NCBI RefSeq assembly: GCF_963921235.1
Contig: NC_086108.1
Location: 17,980,001-18,044,000, forward strand
Direction: 5' to 3'
From: Mobula hypostoma
Lineage: Eukaryota
Length of the DNA stretch: 64,000 nucleotides
The position numbers and the translations under genes are program-made. The first letter of the stretch is position 1; every line of letters starts with the position of its first letter. The notes beneath the pieces are model-generated. The model was not told where the DNA came from. It did no database searches and was given only the letters and a program-made list of their open reading frames with translations. Positions 3,113-64,000 of this stretch are shown piece by piece.

Positions 3113-3169
3113 TTTCACTTCTCCTTTCCTGATGGAAAGGTATCAAAAATGCAAGAGATTTAGTCCTCG

Positions 3170-4622
3170 TTTTCTTTAGGTCCTCGTTGTCTACGGGAAT
3201 GGTATCGGAGGATTGGAGGGAGGCGAATGTTGTCCCCTTGTTCAAAAAAGGTAGTAGGGATAGCCCGGGTAATTATAGACCAGTGAACCTTACGTCTGTG
3301 GTGGGAAAGCTGTTGGAAAAGATTCTTAAAGATAGGATCTATGGGCATTTTGAGAATCATGGTCTGATCAGGGACAGTTACTATGGCTTTGTGAAGGGCA
3401 GATCATGTCTAACAAGCCTGATTGAGTTCTTTGAGGAGGTGACCAGGCATATAGATGAGGGTAGTGCAGTGGATGTGATCTACATGGATTTTAGTAAGGT
3501 ATTTGACAAGGTTCCACACGGTAAGCTTATTCAGAAAGTCAGAAGGCATGGGATCCAGGGAAGTTTGGCCATGTGGATTCAAAATTGGATCGTGGTGAAG
3601 GGAGTACATTCAGTTTGGAGGGTTGTGACTAGTGGTGTCCCACAAGGATCGGTTCTGAGACCACTACTTTTCGTGATTTTTATTAATGACCTAGATGTGT
3701 GGGTAGAAGGGTGGGTTGGCAAGTTGCAGGCAACACAAAAGTTGGTGGTGTTGTAGATAGTGTAGAGGATTGTCGAAGATTGCAGAGAGACATTGATAGG
3801 ATGCAGAAGTGGGCTGAGAAGTGGTAGATGGAGTTCAACCCGGAGAAGTGTGAGGTGGTACACTTTGGAAGGACAAACTCCAAGGCACAGTACAAAGTAA
3901 ATGGCAGGATACTTGGTAGTGTGGAGGAGCAGAGGGATCTGGGGGTACATGTCCACAGATCCCTGAAAGTTGCCTCACAGGTAGATAGGGTAGTGAAGAA
4001 AGCTTATGGGGTGTTAGCTTTCATAAGTCGAGGGATGGAGTTTAAGAGTCGCGATGTAATGATGCAGCTCTATAAAACTCTGGTTAGGCCACACTTGGAA
4101 TACTGTGTCCAGTTCTGGTCGCCTCACTATAGGAAGGATGTGGAAGCATTGGAAAGGGTACAGAGGAGATTTACCAGGATGCTGCCTGGTTTAGAGAGTA
4201 TGGATTATGATCAGATATTAAGGGAGCTAGGGCTTTACTCTTTGGAGAGAAAGAGGATGAGAGGAGACATGATAGAGGTATACAAGATATTAAGAGGAAT
4301 AGATATAGTGGATAGCCAGCGCCTCTTCCCCAGGGCACCACTGCTCAATACAAGGGGACATGGCTTTAAGGTAAGGGGTGGGAAGTTCAAGGGGAATATT
4401 AGAGGAAGGTTTTTTACTCAGAGAGTGGTTCGTGCGTGGAATACACTGCCTGATTCAGTGGTGGAGGCAGATGCACTGGTGAAATTTAAGAGACTACTAG
4501 ACAGGTATATGGAGGAATATAAGGTGGGGGGGGGGTTATATGGGAGACAGGGTTTGAGGGTTGGCACAACAATGTGGGCCGAAGGGCCTGTACTGTGCTG
4601 TACTATTCTGTGTTCTATGTTC
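3170..4622 (+). mobile_element. 5'-truncated CR1 LINE (RT pseudogene)
   Basis: ORFs 3187-3756 and 3828-4631 carry NYRPV.LTS, DFSK.FDKVPH, GVPQGSVL and YKTLVRPHLEYCVQFWSP. Frameshift at the FADD motif. (TTCTATG)n-like tail. Confidence 0.95.
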
Positions 4623-4729
4623 AGATGCTAGAAATCCAGAGCAACACCTGGAGGAACTCAGCAAGTCAGGTAGCTTCTATGGAGATGAATAAATAGTTGA
4701 TGTTTCAGGCCAAGGCCCTTCCTCAGGAC
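4623..4729 (-). mobile_element. Penelope pLTR fragment with degenerate hammerhead
   Basis: GGAGGAACTCAGC...AGTTGATGTTTCAGGCCAAGGCCCTTCCTCAGGAC is homologous to 1700-1797. Confidence 0.65.
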
Positions 4730-7847: not shown

Positions 7848-8952
7848 TTGCAGTGCAATAAAGTTACAGTGAAATCAAAGCAAAAAGTACCAAATACTGG
7901 TCTTAAGGTGTTATACTTAAATGCACGCAGCATAAGGAATAAGGTGGGTGATCTTGTCGTACAGCTACAGGTTGGCAGGTATGATATTTTTGCCATCACT
8001 GAGACGTGGCTAAAGGATGCATGTCTCTGGGAGCTGAACGTCCAAGGATACACGGTGTATCGGAAGGATAGGAAGGTAGGCAGAGGGGGAGTTGTGGCTT
8101 TATTGGTAAGAAATTATATTAAATCATTAGAAAGAGGTGATATAGGATCGGAAGGTGCAGAATCTTGATGGGTTGAGCTAAGAAATTGCAGGGGTAAAAG
8201 GACCCTGATGGCAGTTATTTATAGGCCTTCAAAAAGCTGCAGTGAGGTGGACTACAAATTACAACAGGAAATAGAAAAGGCTTGTCAGAAGGGCAGTGTT
8301 ATGATAATTGTGGGGGACTTTAACGTGCGAGTGGATTGGGAAAATCAGGTCGGCACTGGATCTCAAGAGAGAGAATTTGTAGAATGTCTGCAAGATGGCT
8401 TTTTAGAACAGCTTGTTGTTGAGCCCACTAGGGGATCGGCTGTACTGGATTGGGTATTGTGTAATGAACCAGAGGTGATTAGAGAGATTGAGGTGAAGGA
8501 ACCCTTAGGAGGCAGTGATCATAACATGATTGAGTTCATTGTGAAGTTTGAAAAAGAGAAGCCGAAATCTGATGTGTCGGTATTTCAGTGGAGTAAAGGA
8601 AATTACAGTGGCATGAGAGAGGAACTGGCCAAAGTTGACTGGAAAGGGACACTGGCGGGAAAGACAGCAAAGCAGTGGTGGCTGGAGTTTATGTGAGAAG
8701 TGAGGAAGATGCAAGACAGGTATATTCCAAAAAAGAAGAAATTTTCGAATGGAAAAAGGATGCAACTGTGGTTGACAAGTGAAGTCAAAGCCAAAGTTAA
8801 AGCAAAGGAGAGGGCATACAAGGAAGCAAAAATTAGCGGGAAGACAGAGGATTGGGAAGTTTTTAAAAGCTTACAAAAGGAAACTAGGAAGGTCATTAAG
8901 AGGGAAAAGATTAACTATGAGAGGAAGCTAGCAAATAATATCAAAGAGAATA
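7848..8952 (+). pseudogene. CR1 ORF2 5' part: APE-like endonuclease and linker (stops at 8166 and 8694)
   Basis: YLNARSI, ITETWL, YRKDR, IYRP, GDFN, LDWVL and SDHNMI motifs. Confidence 0.92.
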
Positions 8953-10503
8953 CAGATTTCACCCGCCATCCGAAGGTGGAGTGTTCCTATGAAACGTTTC
9001 GTAAGCCGAAACGTCATAAAGTGAAGAAGCAATTACCATTTATTTATATGGGAAAATTTTGTGAGCATTCGCAGACCCAAAAATCACCTACCAAATCATG
9101 CCATATAACACATAAAACCTAAAATAACAGTAACATATAGTAAAAGCAGGAATGATATGATAAATACACAGCCCATATAAAGTAGAAATACTTCTCTACA
9201 ACAACTGCCTGCACGGATCTCCGTAGCGAAAATCTCACGCAAGCGCTCTTGGCAGGAAGTCTCACGCAAGCGCTGTTGGCATAAACGCGCTCTCCAGTAA
9301 CCTTTAAACTGTGAAGCTGCCAAATCTACCAAATAACACGTAAAAATACACAGCCTATATCAAGTAGAAATAATGTATGTACAGTGTAGTATCACTTACC
9401 GGAATTGAGAAGACATCGAGCACACTAATGATGGTGTGTTTGGCTGAACTGTTGCAGGCTGGGGTGGTGCAGTGGCTTCCACTCCCCAGGCCGCTGACTG
9501 ATACATTGCCGTGAAGCACGCAGGGGTAGCCGGGAGGCACAGAGCACATCGTTAAGAAAAAAGCTGAAATAAACGTGCTAACTAATTCGGTGCTGCCTGG
9601 CACGTAAATGTTGGCGCAGATCAGAGGCGATTGCCGATTGCATCGGCACTGATCTGGGCCGACAATTATGTGCTAGGCGGCACCTAATTAATTAGTATAT
9701 TTATTTCGTTTTTTTTCTTAAAGATGAGCTGGGTGCGTCCCAGGTACCGTTGCATTTTCCGCGAATCAGTATCTGTCCGTGGCCTGGGGGTTGGAGTGGT
9801 GGGACACTGGGGTGCAATCTCGTCGTCTGTTTCCATTAGAGCAGGCGGCTCATCTTCTTCTATCTCTGCCCGCCTCGATGTCGAAGGTCGAAGTTCGTCG
9901 TCTGCTGCGGCTGATGTGGAAGGCTTGCTTGACTGCTGAGCCTTGCGCATTTTTCTATCACACAGTTCTTTAATAAGGACTCAAACCATCCTGCAAATAT
10001 CTCCTAAACCGACGTACCCTTTCAAAATTAAAGTTGTACTTTATCATTACTCATTTGGTTTTGATTGTTACCCTTTTTTCTTCCAATTGCATCAGCTCTT
10101 CATCTGTCAGTTCTTGGTGATGGGATGCCAAAACCTCTTCAACATCATGTTCGTCAGCTTCCACAAGCCAAACTCACGTTGTCTTTACTTGGTTCACCAC
10201 GATCAAAACGCTTAATTATGTCTAGATTTATGTAAGTGTAACACCCTTACGAGCTCTTTCAGGCTCTTCCGATACCATAGAACTCATCTTGCAAATGGCT
10301 GCTCACAGGCATGTGTTAAAGCAAAGCAGTTCCGAATCCGGGGGAGAGCGACTGCTTGGGGTGCACCCTGCCTTTTATCGCACGCTGAATTTTTTTTCGT
10401 AACAGTGAAAACACCTTCTGGAAGCAGAAAGAGGGTACTAATGTAGGTCTTTCGTAACAGTGAGGTTTCGTAAAGCGAACGTTTGAAAAGCGGGGGACAC
10501 CTG
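8953..10503 (-). mobile_element. Internally deleted Tigger/pogo DNA transposon
   Basis: TA TSD (8951-8952 and 10504-10505); removing the element restores CR1 ORF2 (NIKENTKSFFKY). Imperfect TIRs CAGATTTCACCCGC / CAGGTGTCCCCCGC. The minus strand holds an N-terminal remnant (LDIIKRFDRGE) fused to a C-terminal remnant (DVEEVLASHHQELTDEELMQLEE). Confidence 0.85.
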
Positions 10504-10505
10504 TA

Positions 10506-12215
10506 CTAAAAGCTTTTTCAAGTATATGAAGAGTAAAAGACAGGTGAGAGTAGATATAGGACCGATAGAAAATGATGCTGGAGAAATTGTAATGGGAGAT
10601 AAGGAGATGGCGGAGGAACTGAACGAGTATTTTGCATCAGTCTTCACTGAGAAAGATATCAGCAGTATACCGGACACTCAAGGGTGGCAGGGAAGAGAAG
10701 TGTGCGCAGTCACAATTATGACAGAGAAAGTCTTCAGGAAGCTGAATAGTCTAAAGGTAGATAAATCTCCTGGACCAGATGGAATGCATCCTCGTGTTCT
10801 GAAAGAAGTAGCTGTGGAGATTGCGGAGGCATTAGTGATGATCTTTCAAAAGTCGATAGATTCTGGCATGGTTCCGGAGGACTGGAAGATTGCAAATGTC
10901 ACTCCGCTATTTAAGAAGGGGGCAAGGAAGCAAAAAGGAAATTATAGACCTGTTAGCTTGACATCAGTGGTTGGGAAGTTGTTGGAGTCGATTGTCAAGG
11001 ATGAGGTTACAGAGTACCTGGAGGCATATGACAAGATAGGCAGAACTCAGCATGGATTCCTTAAAGGAAAACCCTGCCTGACAAACCTATTACAATTTTT
11101 TGAGGAAATTACAAGTAGGCTAGACAAGGGAGATGCAGTAGATGTTGTATATTTGGATTTTCAGAAGGCCTTTGACAAGGTGCCACACATGAGGCTACTT
11201 AACAAGATAAGAGCCCATGGAATTACGGGAAAGTTACATACGTGGATAGAGCATTGGCTGATTGGCAGGAAACAGAGAGTGGGAATAAAGGGATCCTATT
11301 CTGGTTGGCTGCCGGTTACCAGTGGTGTTCCACAGGGGTCCGTGTTGGGGCTGCTTCTTTTTACATTGTACATCAACGATTTGGATTATGGAATAGATGG
11401 CTTTGTAGCTAAGTTTGCTGATGATACGAAGATAGGTGGAGGGGCCGGTAGTGCTGAGGAAATGGAGAGTCTGCAGAGAGACTTGGATAGATTGGAAGAA
11501 TGGGCAAAGAAGTGGCAAATGAAGTACAATGTTGGAAAGTGTATGGTTATGCACTTTGGCAGAAGAAATAAACGGGCAGACTATTATTTTAATGGGGAGA
11601 GAATTCAAAGTTCTGAGATGCAACGGGACTTGGGAGTCCTTGTACAGGATACCCTTAAAGTTAACCTCCAGGTTGAATCGGTAGTGAAGAAGGCGAATGC
11701 AATGTTGGCATTCATTTCTAGAGGAATAGAGTAAAGGAGCAGGGATGTGATGTTGAGGCTTTATAAGGGACTGGTGAGACCTCACTTGGAGTACTGTGGG
11801 CAGTTTTGGTCTCCATATTTAAGAAAGGATGTGCTGACGTTGGAGAGGGTACAGAGAAGATTCACTAGAATGATTCCGGGAATGAGAGGGTTAACATATA
11901 AGGAACGTTTGTCCGCTCTTGGACTGTATTCCTTGGAGTTTAGAAGAATGAGGGGATAGGAGACCTCATAGAAACATTTCGGATGTTGAAAGGCATGGAC
12001 AGAGTGGATGTGGCAAAGTGGTTTCCCATGATGGGGGAGTCTAGTATGAGAGGGCATGACTGAAGGATTGAAGGGCACCCATTCAGAACAGAAATGCAAA
12101 GAAATTTTTTTAGTCAGAGGGTGGTGAATCTATGGAATTTGTTGCCACGGGCAGCAGTGGAGGCAAAGTCATTGGGTATATTTAAGACAGAGATTGATGG
12201 TATCTGAGTAGCCAG
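10506..12215 (+). pseudogene. CR1 ORF2 reverse transcriptase domain
   Basis: ORF 10526-11734 has KSPGPDG, NYRPVSLTS, QHGF, DFQKAFDKVPH, GVPQGSVLG and FADDTK. Stop at 11732 and frameshifts downstream. Confidence 0.95.
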
Positions 12216-57595: not shown

Positions 57596-58193
57596 ATGAA
57601 TATTCAAATCGGATTCCAAACAGACCTTCGATATTCCTCACAGTCAGCTTTCCGGCGAGCCCTTTGTAATGTCTTCTGAGGTCACCGACTGTAACCCCTC
57701 CGTTTCAGATACGATCGTTCCTCTGCAGTGAACCTGGCACCCAGGCAAGGGCGGACACACACCAGGTTCCCGCCGATCGTACCTTTCCACCCTGTGCGTC
57801 TATGGCTTGGTCCCGCGACCAGCCCCCCAAAACTCCCACCGACTTGTGGGAGGTGCACCGCTTCCAGGGTCTCATTACCTCGTGGTCTCGTGTGTGTCCT
57901 GCCTTAGCGAACCTGTCCCTTTTTATCCCCCTGCTGGGGTATCGCCTGTCCATCACACTTCAAACAGTTCAGGGTTCAAACAGGAGCCGATCTTGACAGT
58001 TCTCAGACAGGTGTCTCCTTCCGTTAAACTCTCTCGTCTCTTCATTAACATTTCCAAATCCTGCTCCATTGTCTTCCTTATCTCTCTTTCTCCTGAAGAC
58101 AGGTGGCAGATCAACTGTTGATCCCACTGGTGCCAGCACAGGACAGTTAACATCTTAATCTATGTGTACTTTTTGTAACCCTCTTTCGTCACA
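57273..58193 (-). mobile_element. Solo LTR, 921 bp (Gypsy-like by its 4-bp TSD)
   Basis: TGTTACG...CGTCACA termini; TSD GCAG (57269-57272 and 58194-58197). Minus-strand AATAAA near 57356-57361 and a TATA-like GATAAAAAG near 57920. Internal (GA)n at 57552-57592. Confidence 0.85.
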
Positions 58194-58777
58194 GCAGGTA
58201 CTTTGAATTGTCAAAATCAAAACTTAGAAGTGTTAACAGCTTTGTGCGGATAGATTGTTTAGGAATGTACTCTTCTTGTGTTGCTTCTTGAAGCCTTGCT
58301 TGCTCCCAGATGTACACGGCTCTGTGGTCTGTTATACCTATACCAAAGTTGGATGAAAGCCTTCCAGGTGTTGAATTTCAAGGTCAGGGAGCCTTGTTAC
58401 AGCTGTGTAAATCTAGCTCTCAATTCTCCAAACCTGGGTAAAAGAGTTCACTGGGATTTTTCCTAGACTGGAGTGAATTAGCTATCTGGAGAGATTGGAC
58501 ACACTTGGACTGTTTTCTCTGGAGCACTGGAGGCTGATAGAAGTTTATAAAATTACGTGTGTGTAGAAAGTCAGAGTCTTTTACCTCAAGTGGAATGTCA
58601 AATACTAGAGGATATAACTTGGGAGGAAAGTTTGAAAGGGAATATGAAGCAAGCTGTTTTACAGGGTAATGGAATGTGTTGTCAGGGAAGGTGCTGGAAT
58701 CAGACATAGAGCAACACCTAAGAGACATTTAGACAGGCATATGATCAGGTAGGAGATGGAGGAATTTAGATCATGAT

Positions 58778-61476
58778 CATGGAGCAGATTGGGAGGCAGA
58801 TTTTGGAAAGGTGCAAAAATAACAGGGTTGTTATCATGGGTGACTTTAACTTCCCTAATATTGATTGGCACCTGATTAGTTCCAAAGGTTTGGACGGGGC
58901 AGAGTTTGTTAAGTGTGTCCCAGGATGGATTCCTGTCACAGTATGTTGACAGGTCGACTAGGGAGAATGCCATACTAGATCTAGTATTAGATAACGAACT
59001 GGGTCAGGTCACAGATCTCTCAGAGGGTGAGCATCTGGGGGACAGTGACCATCATTCCCTGACCTTCAGCATTATCATGGAAAAGGATAGAATCAAAGAG
59101 GACAGGAAAAGTTTTAATTGGGGAAGGGCAAATTATGAGGCTAGAACTTGTGGGTATGAATTGTGGTGATGATGTTTTTGCAGGGAAATATACTATGGAC
59201 GTGTGGTCAATGTTTAGAAATCTCTTGCAAGATGTTAGGGATAAATTTGTACGGGTGAGGAAGGTAAGGAATGGTAGGGTGAAGGAACCATGGGTGAAAA
59301 GTGAGGTGGAAAATTTAGTCAGGTGGAAGACGGCAGCATACATGAGGTTTAGGAAGCAAGGATCAGATGGGTCTATTGAGAATATAGGGTGGCAAGAAAG
59401 GAGCTTAAGAAGGGGCTGAGAAGAGCAAGAAGGGGGCATGAGAAGGCCTTGGCGAGTAGGGTAAAGGAAAACCCCAAGGCATTCTTCAATTATGTGAAGA
59501 ACAAAATGATGACAGGAGTGAAGGTAGGACCGATTAGAGATAAAGGTGGGAAGATGTGCCTGGAGGCTGTGGAAGTGAGCGAGGTCCTCAATGAATACTT
59601 CTCTTCAGTATTCACCAATGAGAGGGAACTTGATGATGGTGAGGACAATATAGATAGATAGACAGATATACTTTATTGATCCCGAGGGAAATTGGGTTTC
59701 ATTACAGCTGCACCAACCAAAAATAGAGCATAAATATAGCAAATCAAAAACCACAAACAATCAAACAACAATATGCAAACTATGCCAGATGGAAATGAGT
59801 CCAGGACAAGCCTATTGGCTCAGGGTCTCTGATCCTCCACGGGAGGAGCTGCATGAGTGAGGTTGCTGTTCTGGAGCATGTTGATATTAAGGGAGAGGAG
59901 GTGTTGGAGTTGTTAAAATACATTAGGACAGATAAGTCCCTGGGGCCTGATGGAATATTCCCCAGGCTGCTCCAGAAGGCAAGGGAAGAGATTGCTGAGC
60001 CTCTGGCTAGGATTTTCATGTCTTCGTTGTCTACGGGACTGGTACCGGAGGATTGGAGAGAGGCTAATGTTGTCCCCTTGTTCAAAAAAGGTAGTAGGGA
60101 TAGTCCGGGTAATTATAGACCAGTGACCCTTATGTCTGTGGTGGGAAAGCTGTTGGAAAAGATTCTTAGAGATAGGATCTATGGGCACTTAGAGAATCAT
60201 GGTCTGATCAGGGACAGTCAGCATGGCTTTGTGAAGGGCAGATAGTGTCTAACAAGCCTGATAGAGTTCTTTGGGGAGGTGTCGAGGCATATGGATGAGG
60301 GTAGTGCAGTGGATGTGATCTATATGGATTTTAGTAAGGCACTTGACAAGGTTCCACACGGTAGGCTTATTCAGAAAGTCAGAAAGCATGGGAACCAGGG
60401 AGGTTTGACCAGATGGATTCAGAATTGGCTTGCCTGCAGAAGGCAGAGGGTCATGGTGGAGGGAGTACATTTGGATTGGAGGGTTGTGACTAGTGGTGTC
60501 CCACAAGGATCGGTTCTGGGACCTCTACTTTTTGTGATTTTTATTAATGACCTGGATGTTGGGGTAGAAGGGTCGGTTGGCAAGTTTGCAGATGACAGAA
60601 AGGTTGGTGGCGTTGTGGATAGCGTAGAGGATTGTCAAAGGTTGCAGAGAGACATTGATAGGTTGCAGAAGTGGGCTGAGAAGTGGCAGATGGAGTTCAA
60701 CCTGGAGAAGTGTGAGGTGGTACACTTTGGAAGGACAAACTCCAAGGCAGAGTACAAATTAAATGGCAGAATACTTGGTAGTGTGGAGGAACAGAGGGAT
60801 CTGGGTGTACATGTCCACAGAATCCTGAAAGTTACCTCACAGGTAGATAGGGTAGTTAAGAATGCTTATGGGGTGTTAGCTTTCATAAGTTGAGGGATAG
60901 AGTTTAAGAGTCGCAAGGTAGTGATGCAGCTCTATAAAACTCTGGTTAGGCCACACTTGGAGTACTGTGTCCACTTCTGGTCACCTCACTATAGGAAGGA
61001 TGTGGAAGCATTGGAAAGGGTACAGGGGAGATTTACCAGGATGCTGCCTGGTTTAGAGAGTATGGATTATCATCAGAGATTAAGGGAGCTAGGGCTTTGC
61101 TCTTTGGAGAGAAGGAGGATGAGAGGAGACATGACAGAGGTATACAAAATACTAAGAGGAATAGATAGAGTGGATAGCCAGCGCCCCTTCCCCAGGGTAC
61201 CACTGCTCAATACAAGAGGACATGGCTTTAAGGTGGGAAGTTCAAGGGGGATATTAGAGGAAGGTTTTTTACTCAGAGAGTGGTTGGTGCATGGAATGCA
61301 CTGCCTGAGTCAGTGGTGGAGGCAGATACACTAGTGAAATTTAAGAGACTACTAGACAGGTATATGGAGGAATTTAAGGTGGCGGGTTATATGGAAGGCA
61401 GGGTTTGAGGATCTGCACAACAATGTGGGCTGAAGGGCCTGTACTGTGCTGTACTATTCTATGTTCTTTCTATTCT
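58778..61476 (+). mobile_element. 5'-truncated CR1 (endonuclease C-terminus through RT to tail); same subfamily as 3170-4622
   Basis: MGDFNFP, ILDLVL, SDHHSL, NYRPVTL, GVPQGSVLG and FADDRK motifs, with several stops and frameshifts. Confidence 0.95.
59650..59851 (-). mobile_element. Rex1/Babar 3' tail inserted in the CR1
   Basis: (AGAT)n-ATACTTTATTGATCCCGAGGGAAATTGG...AGCCTATTGGCTCAGGGT is homologous to 37538-37710. Removing it restores CR1 GEDN|MSEV. Confidence 0.85.
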
Positions 61477-62307
61477 AAGATGAGTTAGATTGATACGATG
61501 GTCAACACATACTTAATAGCTTGATAGGCCTGTTCCTTAGTGCACTGTTCTATAAACATGAGATCCTGGACTTACAGTCTCAGAGTATGTTACACACAAT
61601 ATACCCACAGGAGCAGAGTGACACATACTGCAGCTAATTTGCATATAAACAGCAGTAAAGGTTTAACAACCAGTTCATCTGTTTTCAGGGATTCAGCTTG
61701 AACAATAACTTTTTTTCGGATATCAAGACTAATATCTATGGTCATCTTGAAAATAGGATTTCTTGTGGGCATTTGAGGGAACAGGCAGGGCATCAGCTCA
61801 AAGATACCCGGAGATACTCTCTAGAGGAGCACAATGCTTAGTTCTCATAACAATAGATAGGGTTTGTTGCTTCTTCTGTCCAGCTGTGGCTCCTGGCAGT
61901 TCAAGTCCTTATAAAGACTGACCACGAAGCACAGGCTTAGTCTCTGCATGGACTCTCAGGTAAACCTGCAGCGATGGGCAGGAACAGCAGGAGAGTCAAT
62001 GCAGGCTGAACATCAACAAGTTCTTGTATGATCTTAGTAGAGATAATGGGAAATTCATGACTGTCACATTCAAAGGCCTCTGTGGGACATGTGTGCACAT
62101 GTATGCATGTTTGTAAATCCTTAGTGTGTTTGTATAATTGTGTGCCAGTGCATGCATATGCTTCCATGTATGTGCAAGTGAGTACATTCATTGCAGATGT
62201 AGCTATTGAGTTTATTGTCATGTGTCATATAGTGAGGTACAAGTATCATTACAAACTAACCTTGCTTGCAGCAGCATCACAGGCAGTTTCAGACAACCAC
62301 AAAATAT

Positions 62308-62866
62308 GTTCGTCCATCGTCGACATCGATGAAGACCTTGACACCATTATTGATGGTGTCGAGACTAGCGCTTGATTTGGATTTAAGTGAGGGAGAGTTG
62401 CACAGCATCAGCCTCACTCTCTCTTCCCAATTCCCATCTGGGTCCAGTGGCAAGACAGAGTCAAGACAGCTGGAGATGGGACTAGGCGCAGTGGATGACC
62501 AGGATGTCTTCTGTGTCTTGTCCTGCTCTACACGTTCCACGACGCCTGCAGAGACCGCCTTCTTGACCGTTGGACCTTCCATTGGTCTCGTCCGCTCAAT
62601 CCGCCGGAGCCTTCTTCACATGCTGGGATAGACAACTCCCTATCTCACCGAGGGTTTGAGACCTGTCGGCTACCCTCACCTGGTTTAGCCGGCTTGTCGA
62701 AGCCGTTGCCCGGGGTGTGGCCGCTGTCACATGTAAACAGCTACGGGGAGCCACAGGTGAGAGCTGAGTGCCAGGTGGGGACCAAAGGTGGACTAACCGC
62801 CTTGAAAAGGACGCGGCATGTTACCCCACCAGAGGTGCTACCCCTCCCTGACACCGCATACACCCC
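62308..62866 (-). mobile_element. Full-length non-autonomous retroposon, 559 bp (probably RTE-clade-derived)
   Basis: 12-bp TSD ACCACAAAATAT (62296-62307 and 62867-62878); GC-rich 5' end that folds as an HDV-like ribozyme; no recognisable protein ORF. The RTE assignment is inferred. Confidence 0.8.
62673..62866 (-). ncRNA. HDV-like self-cleaving ribozyme candidate
   Basis: P1 GGGGUGU/ACACCCC, P2 CUCUCACCUG/CAGGUGAGGG, P3 GGC/GCC, L3 starting UCCCC, GGGCAAC after P1, P4 GGCUU-CGAC-AAGCC, J4/2 GGCUAAAC with candidate catalytic C at 62688. Confidence 0.75.
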
Positions 62867-62925
62867 ACCACAAAATATAAATTATATGTGATTTATACAA
62901 AAGAGTGAAGACAAATAAGGTTAAG

Positions 62926-62927
<2 letters not shown>

Positions 62928-62974
<47 letters not shown>
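62928..62974. repeat. (GT)n microsatellite
   Basis: About 23 uninterrupted GT units. Confidence 0.95.
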
Positions 62975-62976
<2 letters not shown>

Positions 62977-63617
62977 GCGTCTGCATGTCTGTATATGTAT
63001 TCCTGTATTAGCTGCATTAGCATGTGCATATACTGCGCCATATTTGTGTGTACATGAGTGTAAGAGAGAGAAGAAAGAGGGGAACGAAGAAGATGGAAAC
63101 AATTCAAGCATAGGAAGGGAGCCCAAACAGGTGAAGGGGGGGGGGGGGAGAGAGAAAAAGAAATGACAAACTGAAATCAATGGGGAAATCAGACTGAATT
63201 GAGAATTAGACCAGAATTTTAAAAAATGAGAGCACAGAAATAATAAGTGAAGGGAGGAAAAGAAAGAGAAAGGTGCATAGCAGAGAGAGGGAAGATTTAA
63301 CTGGAAGTCAATCAAACTGGAGCAATTTGGACCCTGCCTATCACAAACAATGAACCACACACACGGATAAAAAATCAACACAGTCTGAAACAGATAAAGA
63401 TTTCAGCAGCATGAATATTCCATCATATCTTTTCCAAACAGTACTGGACCCTTACCATGGTGAGGAGTCACAGACACAAAAGTTAGCATGGGACAGCATA
63501 CTGTGATCTCTCTAACAATGCACTCTGCACAGTATGAATGGCCTGAATCTCACTCTCACCTTTGTTTAGCACAGGCTTTGCATTATATCTACTGTCTACA
63601 TCTACCTGACTATCTCC

Positions 63618-63714
63618 CTCACCTGGTGACTTTCCAGTGAGATGATGCTCAGAACTATTGTCCACCTTGACCATCTTCCTCACCTGGTGACTTTACAGTG
63701 AGCTGACGCTCAGA
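63618..63714. repeat. Short direct duplication (36 bp, period 61)
   Basis: CTCACCTGGTGACTTT(C/A)CAGTGAG(A/C)TGA(T/C)GCTCAGA occurs twice. Confidence 0.75.
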
Positions 63715-64000
63715 CCTTTCAAAATTCAGGCTGCAGAATTTCCAGTGTCCAATTGAATTATGCTTTGACCAACTTCAGAAGTAGAATTGGATTTTAATAT
63801 CACTGTATTTTCTGACAAGGGATTTGTTATTTTGCAGCAGCAGTGCAGTGCAAAGACAAAGTCAAAGACATAAAAATTATAAAATAAATAAATAGCACAG
63901 AAATAAGAGGAATAATGAAATGGTGTTCATGAGCTCATGGACCATTCAGAAATTTAATGGTGGAGGGGAAGAAGCTGTTCCTGTTATTAAATATGGGTCT

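Follow-up and report, generated by a model that had tools for sequence, protein, structure and literature searches.

A short bipartite RTE retroposon of Mobula hypostoma that begins with a predicted HDV-like ribozyme carrying a hairpin in L3

The window analysed here, a stretch of 64,000 nucleotides of the M. hypostoma genome, contains on its minus strand a 559 bp insert framed by an exact target site duplication (TSD) of 12 bp. The base adjoining the TSD, G1 (62866), is the start of the element, so that the TSD-flanked retroposon announced by the original prediction was found at its expected place. The features of the locus, from the 5′ to the 3′ side of the element, are the following:

62867-62878, minus strand: TSD, 5′ copy, 12 bp
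62308-62866, minus strand: non-autonomous bipartite RTE element, 559 bp, one copy of a high-copy family
62860-62866, minus strand: P1 5′ strand, GGGGTGT; G1 (62866) is the predicted cleavage-site nucleotide
62764-62859, minus strand: J1/2, 96 nt, predicted long hairpin, with linkers of 4 nt to P1 and 3 nt to P2
62754-62763, minus strand: P2 5′ strand, 10 bp, then one extra U at 62753
62750-62752, minus strand: P3 5′ strand, GGC
62722-62749, minus strand: L3, 28 nt, made of the canonical 7 nt and an inserted hairpin at 62741-62723
62712-62721, minus strand: P3 3′ strand, GCC, and P1 3′ strand, ACACCCC
62690-62711, minus strand: J1/4 and the P4 hairpin (62705-62690, 6 bp)
62683-62689, minus strand: J4/2, with the predicted catalytic C at 62688
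62673-62682, minus strand: P2 3′ strand
62351-62672, minus strand: remainder of the RTE 5′ UTR part, with a domain common to RTE-1_PSi, RTE-3_AMi and RTE-1_NV
62337-62363, minus strand: junction hairpin, with arms 62363-62353 (5′ UTR) and 62347-62337 (3′ UTR)
62308-62349, minus strand: last 42 nt, from the RTE 3′ UTR
62296-62307, minus strand: TSD, 3′ copy, 12 bp

We identified no host gene in the vicinity of the element. Long frames at 3133-4631, 8169-11734 and 59799-61334 of the window are presumably related to ORF2 of CR1-type LINEs. The element itself has no ORF remnant, its one open frame of ∼100 codons lying inside what is the 5′ UTR of a LINE (see below), and no tRNA-derived head: ARAGORN returned 0 hits, no B box was present, and a search for Pol III motifs in the element gave one loose A-box-like match only. 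Elsewhere in the window (63607-63717) lies a pair of direct repeats of 50 nt, 88% alike and spaced by 61 nt; they include 12 nt that match the P2 3′ region, and are probably unrelated to it.

A first look at the 3.48 Gb genome yielded 5035 candidates for the family. Two core patterns gave 1465 and 1748 exact matches, compared to 0 for the reversed controls, and the best 30 copies had a mean identity of about 96%. Upstream flanks of the copies are unrelated, and at their 3′ end short tandem repeats precede short duplications; most copies finish with (AAC)n, (AAG)n, (AC)n or (AACC)n, while the window copy has no repeated tail. With its TSDs, tails and copy number, the family has spread as a unit. 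More than half of the sampled family words were also present in 14 public runs carrying seven organism labels, and in three runs guessed to be RNA. One copy (L073:1359-1507, in the orientation of the element) has about 145 foreign bases in the loop of the junction hairpin.

The position of the 5′ end was examined in 30 copies picked by their last 143 nt, in order to avoid a bias toward complete 5′ ends; the window copy is among them, and four loci overlap the first-look set. Seventeen copies start exactly at G1, another 11 begin between positions 2 and 9, and the remaining 2 are truncated. This means that 28 of the 30 copies begin within nine bases of G1, as anticipated for a 5′ end fixed at that base.

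To find the parent, we searched for the 3′-end pattern preceded by foreign letters, which led to loci ending an RTE-type ORF. All 41 loci fetched finish in element positions 518-559 or 520-559, and 6 of them carry element positions 1-516 about 4.1 kb upstream. Four of these six full-length LINEs start at G1, and one, a 5-kb copy, begins at position 13. Since the parent LINE supplies both 1-516 and 518-559, the element is a clean internal deletion, consisting of the first 516 and the last 42 nt of a 4.1-kb RTE LINE of the same genome. The frame of the LINE starts at about nt 730, beyond the 5′ breakpoint. As the ends of an RTE LINE are joined, the element is a bipartite non-autonomous RTE. An RTE-like LINE had been postulated as a helper in trans; an RTE partner does exist, and its relation to the element is closer than that, the element being its internal-deletion derivative.

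The parent LINE has a single ORF with an APE endonuclease and a reverse transcriptase, no RNase H match, and a microsatellite tail. On the basis of this architecture, and of the likeness of its UTRs to those of RTE-1_PSi and RTE-3_AMi, we assign it to the RTE clade. A Pelodiscus protein is 77% identical to its product over 60% of the query. Locus L115 begins at G1, has a TSD, and contains a frame of 1109 codons with Exo_endo_phos and RVT_1 domains; its reverse transcriptase is devoid of the usual catalytic motif, and decay is evident in all the LINE copies read. The 5′ part was, in three contig runs, roughly 100 to 300 times deeper than the ORF body, a figure that has no bearing on expression; the short form therefore far outnumbers the LINE. 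As for expression, the ratio of short to long form in two contig runs guessed to be RNA was about that of a run of unknown kind, with no enrichment.

We then considered the first 194 nt of the element. In HDV, as in the element, P1 is followed by the string GGGCAAC, and the core of HDV-like ribozymes comprises a paired purine at +1, an L3 that starts with UCC and has a G at position 6, and a catalytic C in J4/2. Each segment of the nested double pseudoknot predicted earlier was found on the minus strand at its coordinates, with P1, P2, P3, P1.1 and P4 in the order typical of HDV-like ribozymes; P1 is closed by its 3′ strand at 62718-62712, and P1.1 pairs CC 62748-62747 of L3 with GG 62711-62710 of J1/4. 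The extra U sits between P2 and P3, and the J1/2 hairpin has a predicted energy of −47.1 kcal/mol. The earlier placement of the segments was correct, but it left unmentioned that P3 closes an L3 of 28 nt instead of the usual 7. This L3 begins with the canonical UCCCCGU, after which comes a 6-bp hairpin (62741-62723), and the 7 nt preceding the insert are identical to those of canonical RTE ribozymes such as L200. Because L3 is 28 nt long, compared to 7 nt in five RTE loci, we file the element as an HDV-like variant, and not as a canonical member. We also considered an alternative P3, in which GGC pairs with the GCU right after the canonical L3 and P3 is separated from P1 by the insert, and rejected it, as it would destroy a hairpin that is kept in two distant RTEs (L133 and L176).

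A descriptor search with a pattern of our own design, which permits a longer L3, was run on both strands of the 64-kb window, as had been advised, and gave a single match, at 62866. Among 70 metagenome loci this strict descriptor found nothing, nor did it in three passes of shuffled control loci. Rfam gave no HDV-family match at E≤10 within 58000-64000. Nested folding of 62665-62880 was weakly better than that of shuffled sequences (z −1.84, 11/200), pseudoknots being outside the model of the program; it predicts competing pairings, of the 5′ end with the P2 5′ strand, and of the P3 5′ strand with J4/2.

Conservation of the fold was analysed at two levels. Among 53 distinct copies of the family, the predicted catalytic C and the core U are always present, and the core G in 47; broken cells amount to 1-4% per helix, and 18 copies, the window copy included, have G1 and every pair intact. 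The family's own copies are young, about 96% identical, and therefore show no covariation; the differences among them look like decay and were discarded as evidence. The covariation that the original prediction recommended looking for, absent within the family, is present between families. Two distant RTEs, the metagenome contigs L133 and L176, carry the same head as the element, with protein identities of 62% and 49% respectively. In an alignment of 8 rows, six of them from one family, and with P1 of L176 out of register, 95.5% of the cells pair, and 5 of the 34 pairs are altered on both sides (one in P1, one in P2, three in P4), compared to 0-1 in a slid-partner control. These five double changes represent few independent events, because only two distant families supply the covariation. 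They support the HDV-like fold proposed from the window copy. P3, P1.1, the catalytic C and the core residues are invariant in the 8 rows, while the L3 hairpin shows one-sided changes only. The inserted hairpin is kept in L133, L176 and an older sister family described below, with an L3 of 26 nt in L133 and 28 nt in L176. J1/2 is predicted to form one long hairpin in the element, L133 and L176 (z −4.05, −1.85 and −3.64).

A relaxed descriptor was also run on 35 RTE 5′ regions, with a control of 0.03 full matches per pass. Five full matches were obtained: L133 and L176 with a long L3, L169 and L200 with a 7-nt L3, and L184, which is probably spurious. L139, L168 and L195 have a 7-nt L3 without P1. 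By eye, L134:14-84 also has an RTE head, with a P2 much like that of the element, and an insert-free L3 of 7 nt; the contig truncates this head on its 5′ side, and the descriptor gave no match there. A chance arrangement in a GC-rich 5′ UTR could account for the missing Rfam match and the weak nested-folding score. However, the lone match in the window falls exactly on the boundary of the element, controls give none or almost none with either descriptor, and compensatory changes are present, so that we attach next to no probability to it.

We consider it probable that the element is an internally deleted 4.1-kb RTE LINE whose first 194 nt fold as an HDV-like ribozyme, which would cut before G1 and thereby fix the 5′ end of the RNA before the LINE protein copies it into DNA. 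Cleavage would be Mg2+ dependent, with C62688 as the putative catalyst. Against this reading stand the competing pairings predicted by nested folding, the decay of all LINE copies read, the low share of copies (18 of 53) with G1 and every pair intact, and the spread of a subfamily (L202-L213) with an A at position 6, in which all 12 copies read have an A-C mismatch in P1 without compensation. With 163 exact 5′ matches, versus 807, this subfamily makes up about 17% of such matches. According to the available part of a report, a P1 mismatch also separates the human from the chimpanzee CPEB3 ribozyme (PMC11810798). The older sister family (L214-L238; 200 exact matches in the same genome, roughly 500-600 nt) kept, among the matches listed, the ribozyme core and the L3 hairpin, with a different inner stem of J1/2 and a different RTE-type 3′ end; in 9 of the 17 copies scored among these matches, C-G replaces G-C at the second pair of P4.

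The spread of the mismatched subfamily would be easier to understand if the fold were inherited, but slow or dispensable in the short element, and if transcription began at or near G1 from an internal promoter for RNA polymerase II, located in the 5′ UTR, which would fix the 5′ end. The 11 copies starting at positions 2-9 point in the same direction, and so does the accessible text of Kojima 2018, where transcription is said to be driven by the 5′ extremes of LINEs, and Pol II to be the probable polymerase of bipartite elements (PMC5786205). However, the boundary coincides with the predicted cleavage base both in short elements and in LINEs, and is at most 1 base off in the distant RTEs; families that differ in their loops agree in the paired positions and the catalytic C; and R2 junctions made from cleaved RNA typically show small losses on the 5′ side, as presented in the portion at hand of PMC3774820. 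We therefore hold a promoter origin of the 5′ end to be unlikely.

The L3 insert raises a different question, L3 being part of the catalytic core in the available account of drz-Agam-2-1 (PMC4908430). It might have turned the ribozyme into a non-catalytic or conditionally active domain, serving protein binding or cap-independent translation of the ORF, of which the short element would be a mere carrier. HDV-like domains are proposed to aid translation initiation in the part consulted of PMC6765202, and the LINE frame of one decayed copy (L115:3666-3230, minus strand) has no AUG for about 140 codons, which is consistent with non-AUG or cap-independent initiation. On the other hand, the insert comes after an intact 7-nt L3, the same as in the canonical L200, core residues are kept in four families, and the non-coding element, which has no use for translation, keeps these residues in its source lineages. 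Loss of catalysis through the insert appears to us quite improbable, and we retain the cleaving ribozyme as the preferred reading.

HDV-like ribozymes of RTE elements are reportedly treated in Ruminski 2011. Our literature search met with no active HDV-like ribozyme having an insert in L3, extra domains being located in J1/2 or P4 only in the excerpts covered; Ruminski 2011 and Webb 2009/2011 may show more. In the accessible parts of the sources, the element shares the 5′ nested double pseudoknot with RTE HDV-like ribozymes (PMC5786205, PMC3774820, PMC6765202) and with drz-Agam-2-1 (PMC4908430), as well as a long structured J1/2 and an extended P2, but differs from them by its 28-nt L3 with a hairpin and by the extra base between P2 and P3. 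Such an extra base, and a G-C at the cleavage site, are found in active fungal variants (PMC5640933, same proviso). A stable J1/2 domain, a long P2 and short linkers speed cleavage in drz-Agam-2-1, and the arrangement of J1/2 in the element is the same (PMC4908430, available text).

The original prediction held that the family may be undescribed in this lineage. The class has been named by Kojima 2018 (PMC5786205) as bipartite non-autonomous RTE, and linked there to 5′ ribozymes, as far as the available portion goes. Like RTE-N2_Lch, RTESINE1/2, WALLSI3 and MAR4_MD of that paper, the element joins RTE 5′ and 3′ ends, with neither ORF nor tRNA head, its 5′ part being longer than that of RTE-N2_Lch (516 vs 214 nt). 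By eye, RTE-1_PSi and RTE-3_AMi of the supplement can be aligned with its 5′ UTR domain and 3′ end, and RTE-1_NV with its middle and 3′ end. That portion mentions a predicted ribozyme, with no structure, L3 insert or pairing of the two parts. In the accessible section of Eickbush and Eickbush 2012, Drosophila R2 SIDEs similarly join a 5′ HDV-like ribozyme to a LINE 3′ end, and require co-transcription and the LINE protein in trans (PMC3414825); they belong to the R2 clade, are rare and confined to 28S rDNA, whereas the element belongs to the RTE clade, is dispersed and has thousands of copies. The trypanosome RIME/NARTc, from the excerpts at hand, are likewise internally deleted non-autonomous retroposons with the ribozyme-bearing 5′ end of the LINE (PMC3414825, PMC6765202), but of the Ingi/L1Tc clade and unrelated in sequence.

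A further property concerns the deletion itself. In the LINE, the 11 nt preceding the 5′ breakpoint are complementary to the 11 nt just past the 3′ breakpoint, about 3.55 kb away, and in the short element the two UTR arms are predicted to form a hairpin at the deletion junction, with one mismatch in the 3′ arm of the window copy. The same positions pair through different sequences in 13 hand-anchored RTEs (L115, L133, L134, L137, L138, L143, L150, L151, L166, L167, L175, L176, L189), where the arms are 3.3-3.9 kb apart. For each, the 20 nt past the 5′ anchor were compared to the 20 nt preceding the 3′ anchor, the anchors being flanking conserved motifs. Mean duplex energy was −15.9 kcal/mol for cognate pairs, versus −6.1 for non-cognate ones; the cognate partner ranked first of 13 in 9 of the 13 RTEs, and 0 of 200000 permutations were as good, with hand anchors that were chosen after several stems had been viewed. 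This set omits 11 of 24 loci: ten without an automatic anchor, and L184, which is closely related to L189. Automatic anchoring allowed 11 of the 24 loci to be scored, L115 being mis-anchored, and 17 of 100000 permutations did as well. In most loci, cognate and control windows could not be told apart by whole-window duplex energy (6/19 loci without anchor).

The same complementarity was seen by eye in RTE-1_PSi, RTE-3_AMi and RTE-11_AMi, and at the junctions of WALLSI1A, WALLSI2, SINE2_Gav and SINE-1_Pmo, as given in the accessible supplement of Kojima 2018 (PMC5786205). No description of the UTR helix was met in the literature search; some of these SINEs have a long history of study, and a stem as conspicuous as this one may be noted in key papers. 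As to the origin of the junction, haplotypes track junction variants, and several origins, or one origin followed by later indels in the loop, both fit.

These elements suggest the following scheme, in which we infer the cleavage, read-through and recognition steps from R2 SIDEs and from reviews of RTE ribozymes. The element, presumably promoterless, would depend on read-through transcription, as is the case for published RTE and R2 elements: a transcript of the flanking DNA would run into it, and the ribozyme would cut before G1, leaving an RNA with a fixed 5′ end. The RTE protein, acting in trans, would bind the 3′ region including the junction helix, and target-primed reverse transcription, starting at a nick, would produce the short TSD. 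In the full-length RNA, the 5′/3′ UTR helix would loop out the ORF, contribute to the signal that is recognised, and direct the deletion, which likely results from the reverse transcriptase, or from repair, skipping the looped-out ORF. As a more tentative proposal, which could well fail, RTE RNAs in general may close their ends by a conserved, covarying UTR helix that is recognised by the RTE protein and is the site of ORF skipping, and a widespread RTE lineage may carry an active HDV-like ribozyme whose L3 contains a hairpin and which escapes current models.

We conclude that the feature is real, that its class is known, and that its structural variant is new. If active, a ribozyme with an L3 hairpin would widen the HDV-like family, and searches restricted to a short L3 would be missing thousands of copies in one vertebrate genome. 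The UTR helix, a side finding, may be the more interesting part. Kojima 2018, in the portion available, leaves open why only RTE, Ingi/Vingi and R2 form bipartite elements (PMC5786205); for RTE, a concrete and testable answer is offered by a covarying helix of the 5′ and 3′ UTRs located where the deletion falls. RTE-based gene-writing templates use both UTRs, according to the accessible text of PMC13708176, so that the helix bears on them as well. If true, the UTR helix, together with ORF skipping, would explain the repeated origin of two-part elements and SINEs from RTEs.
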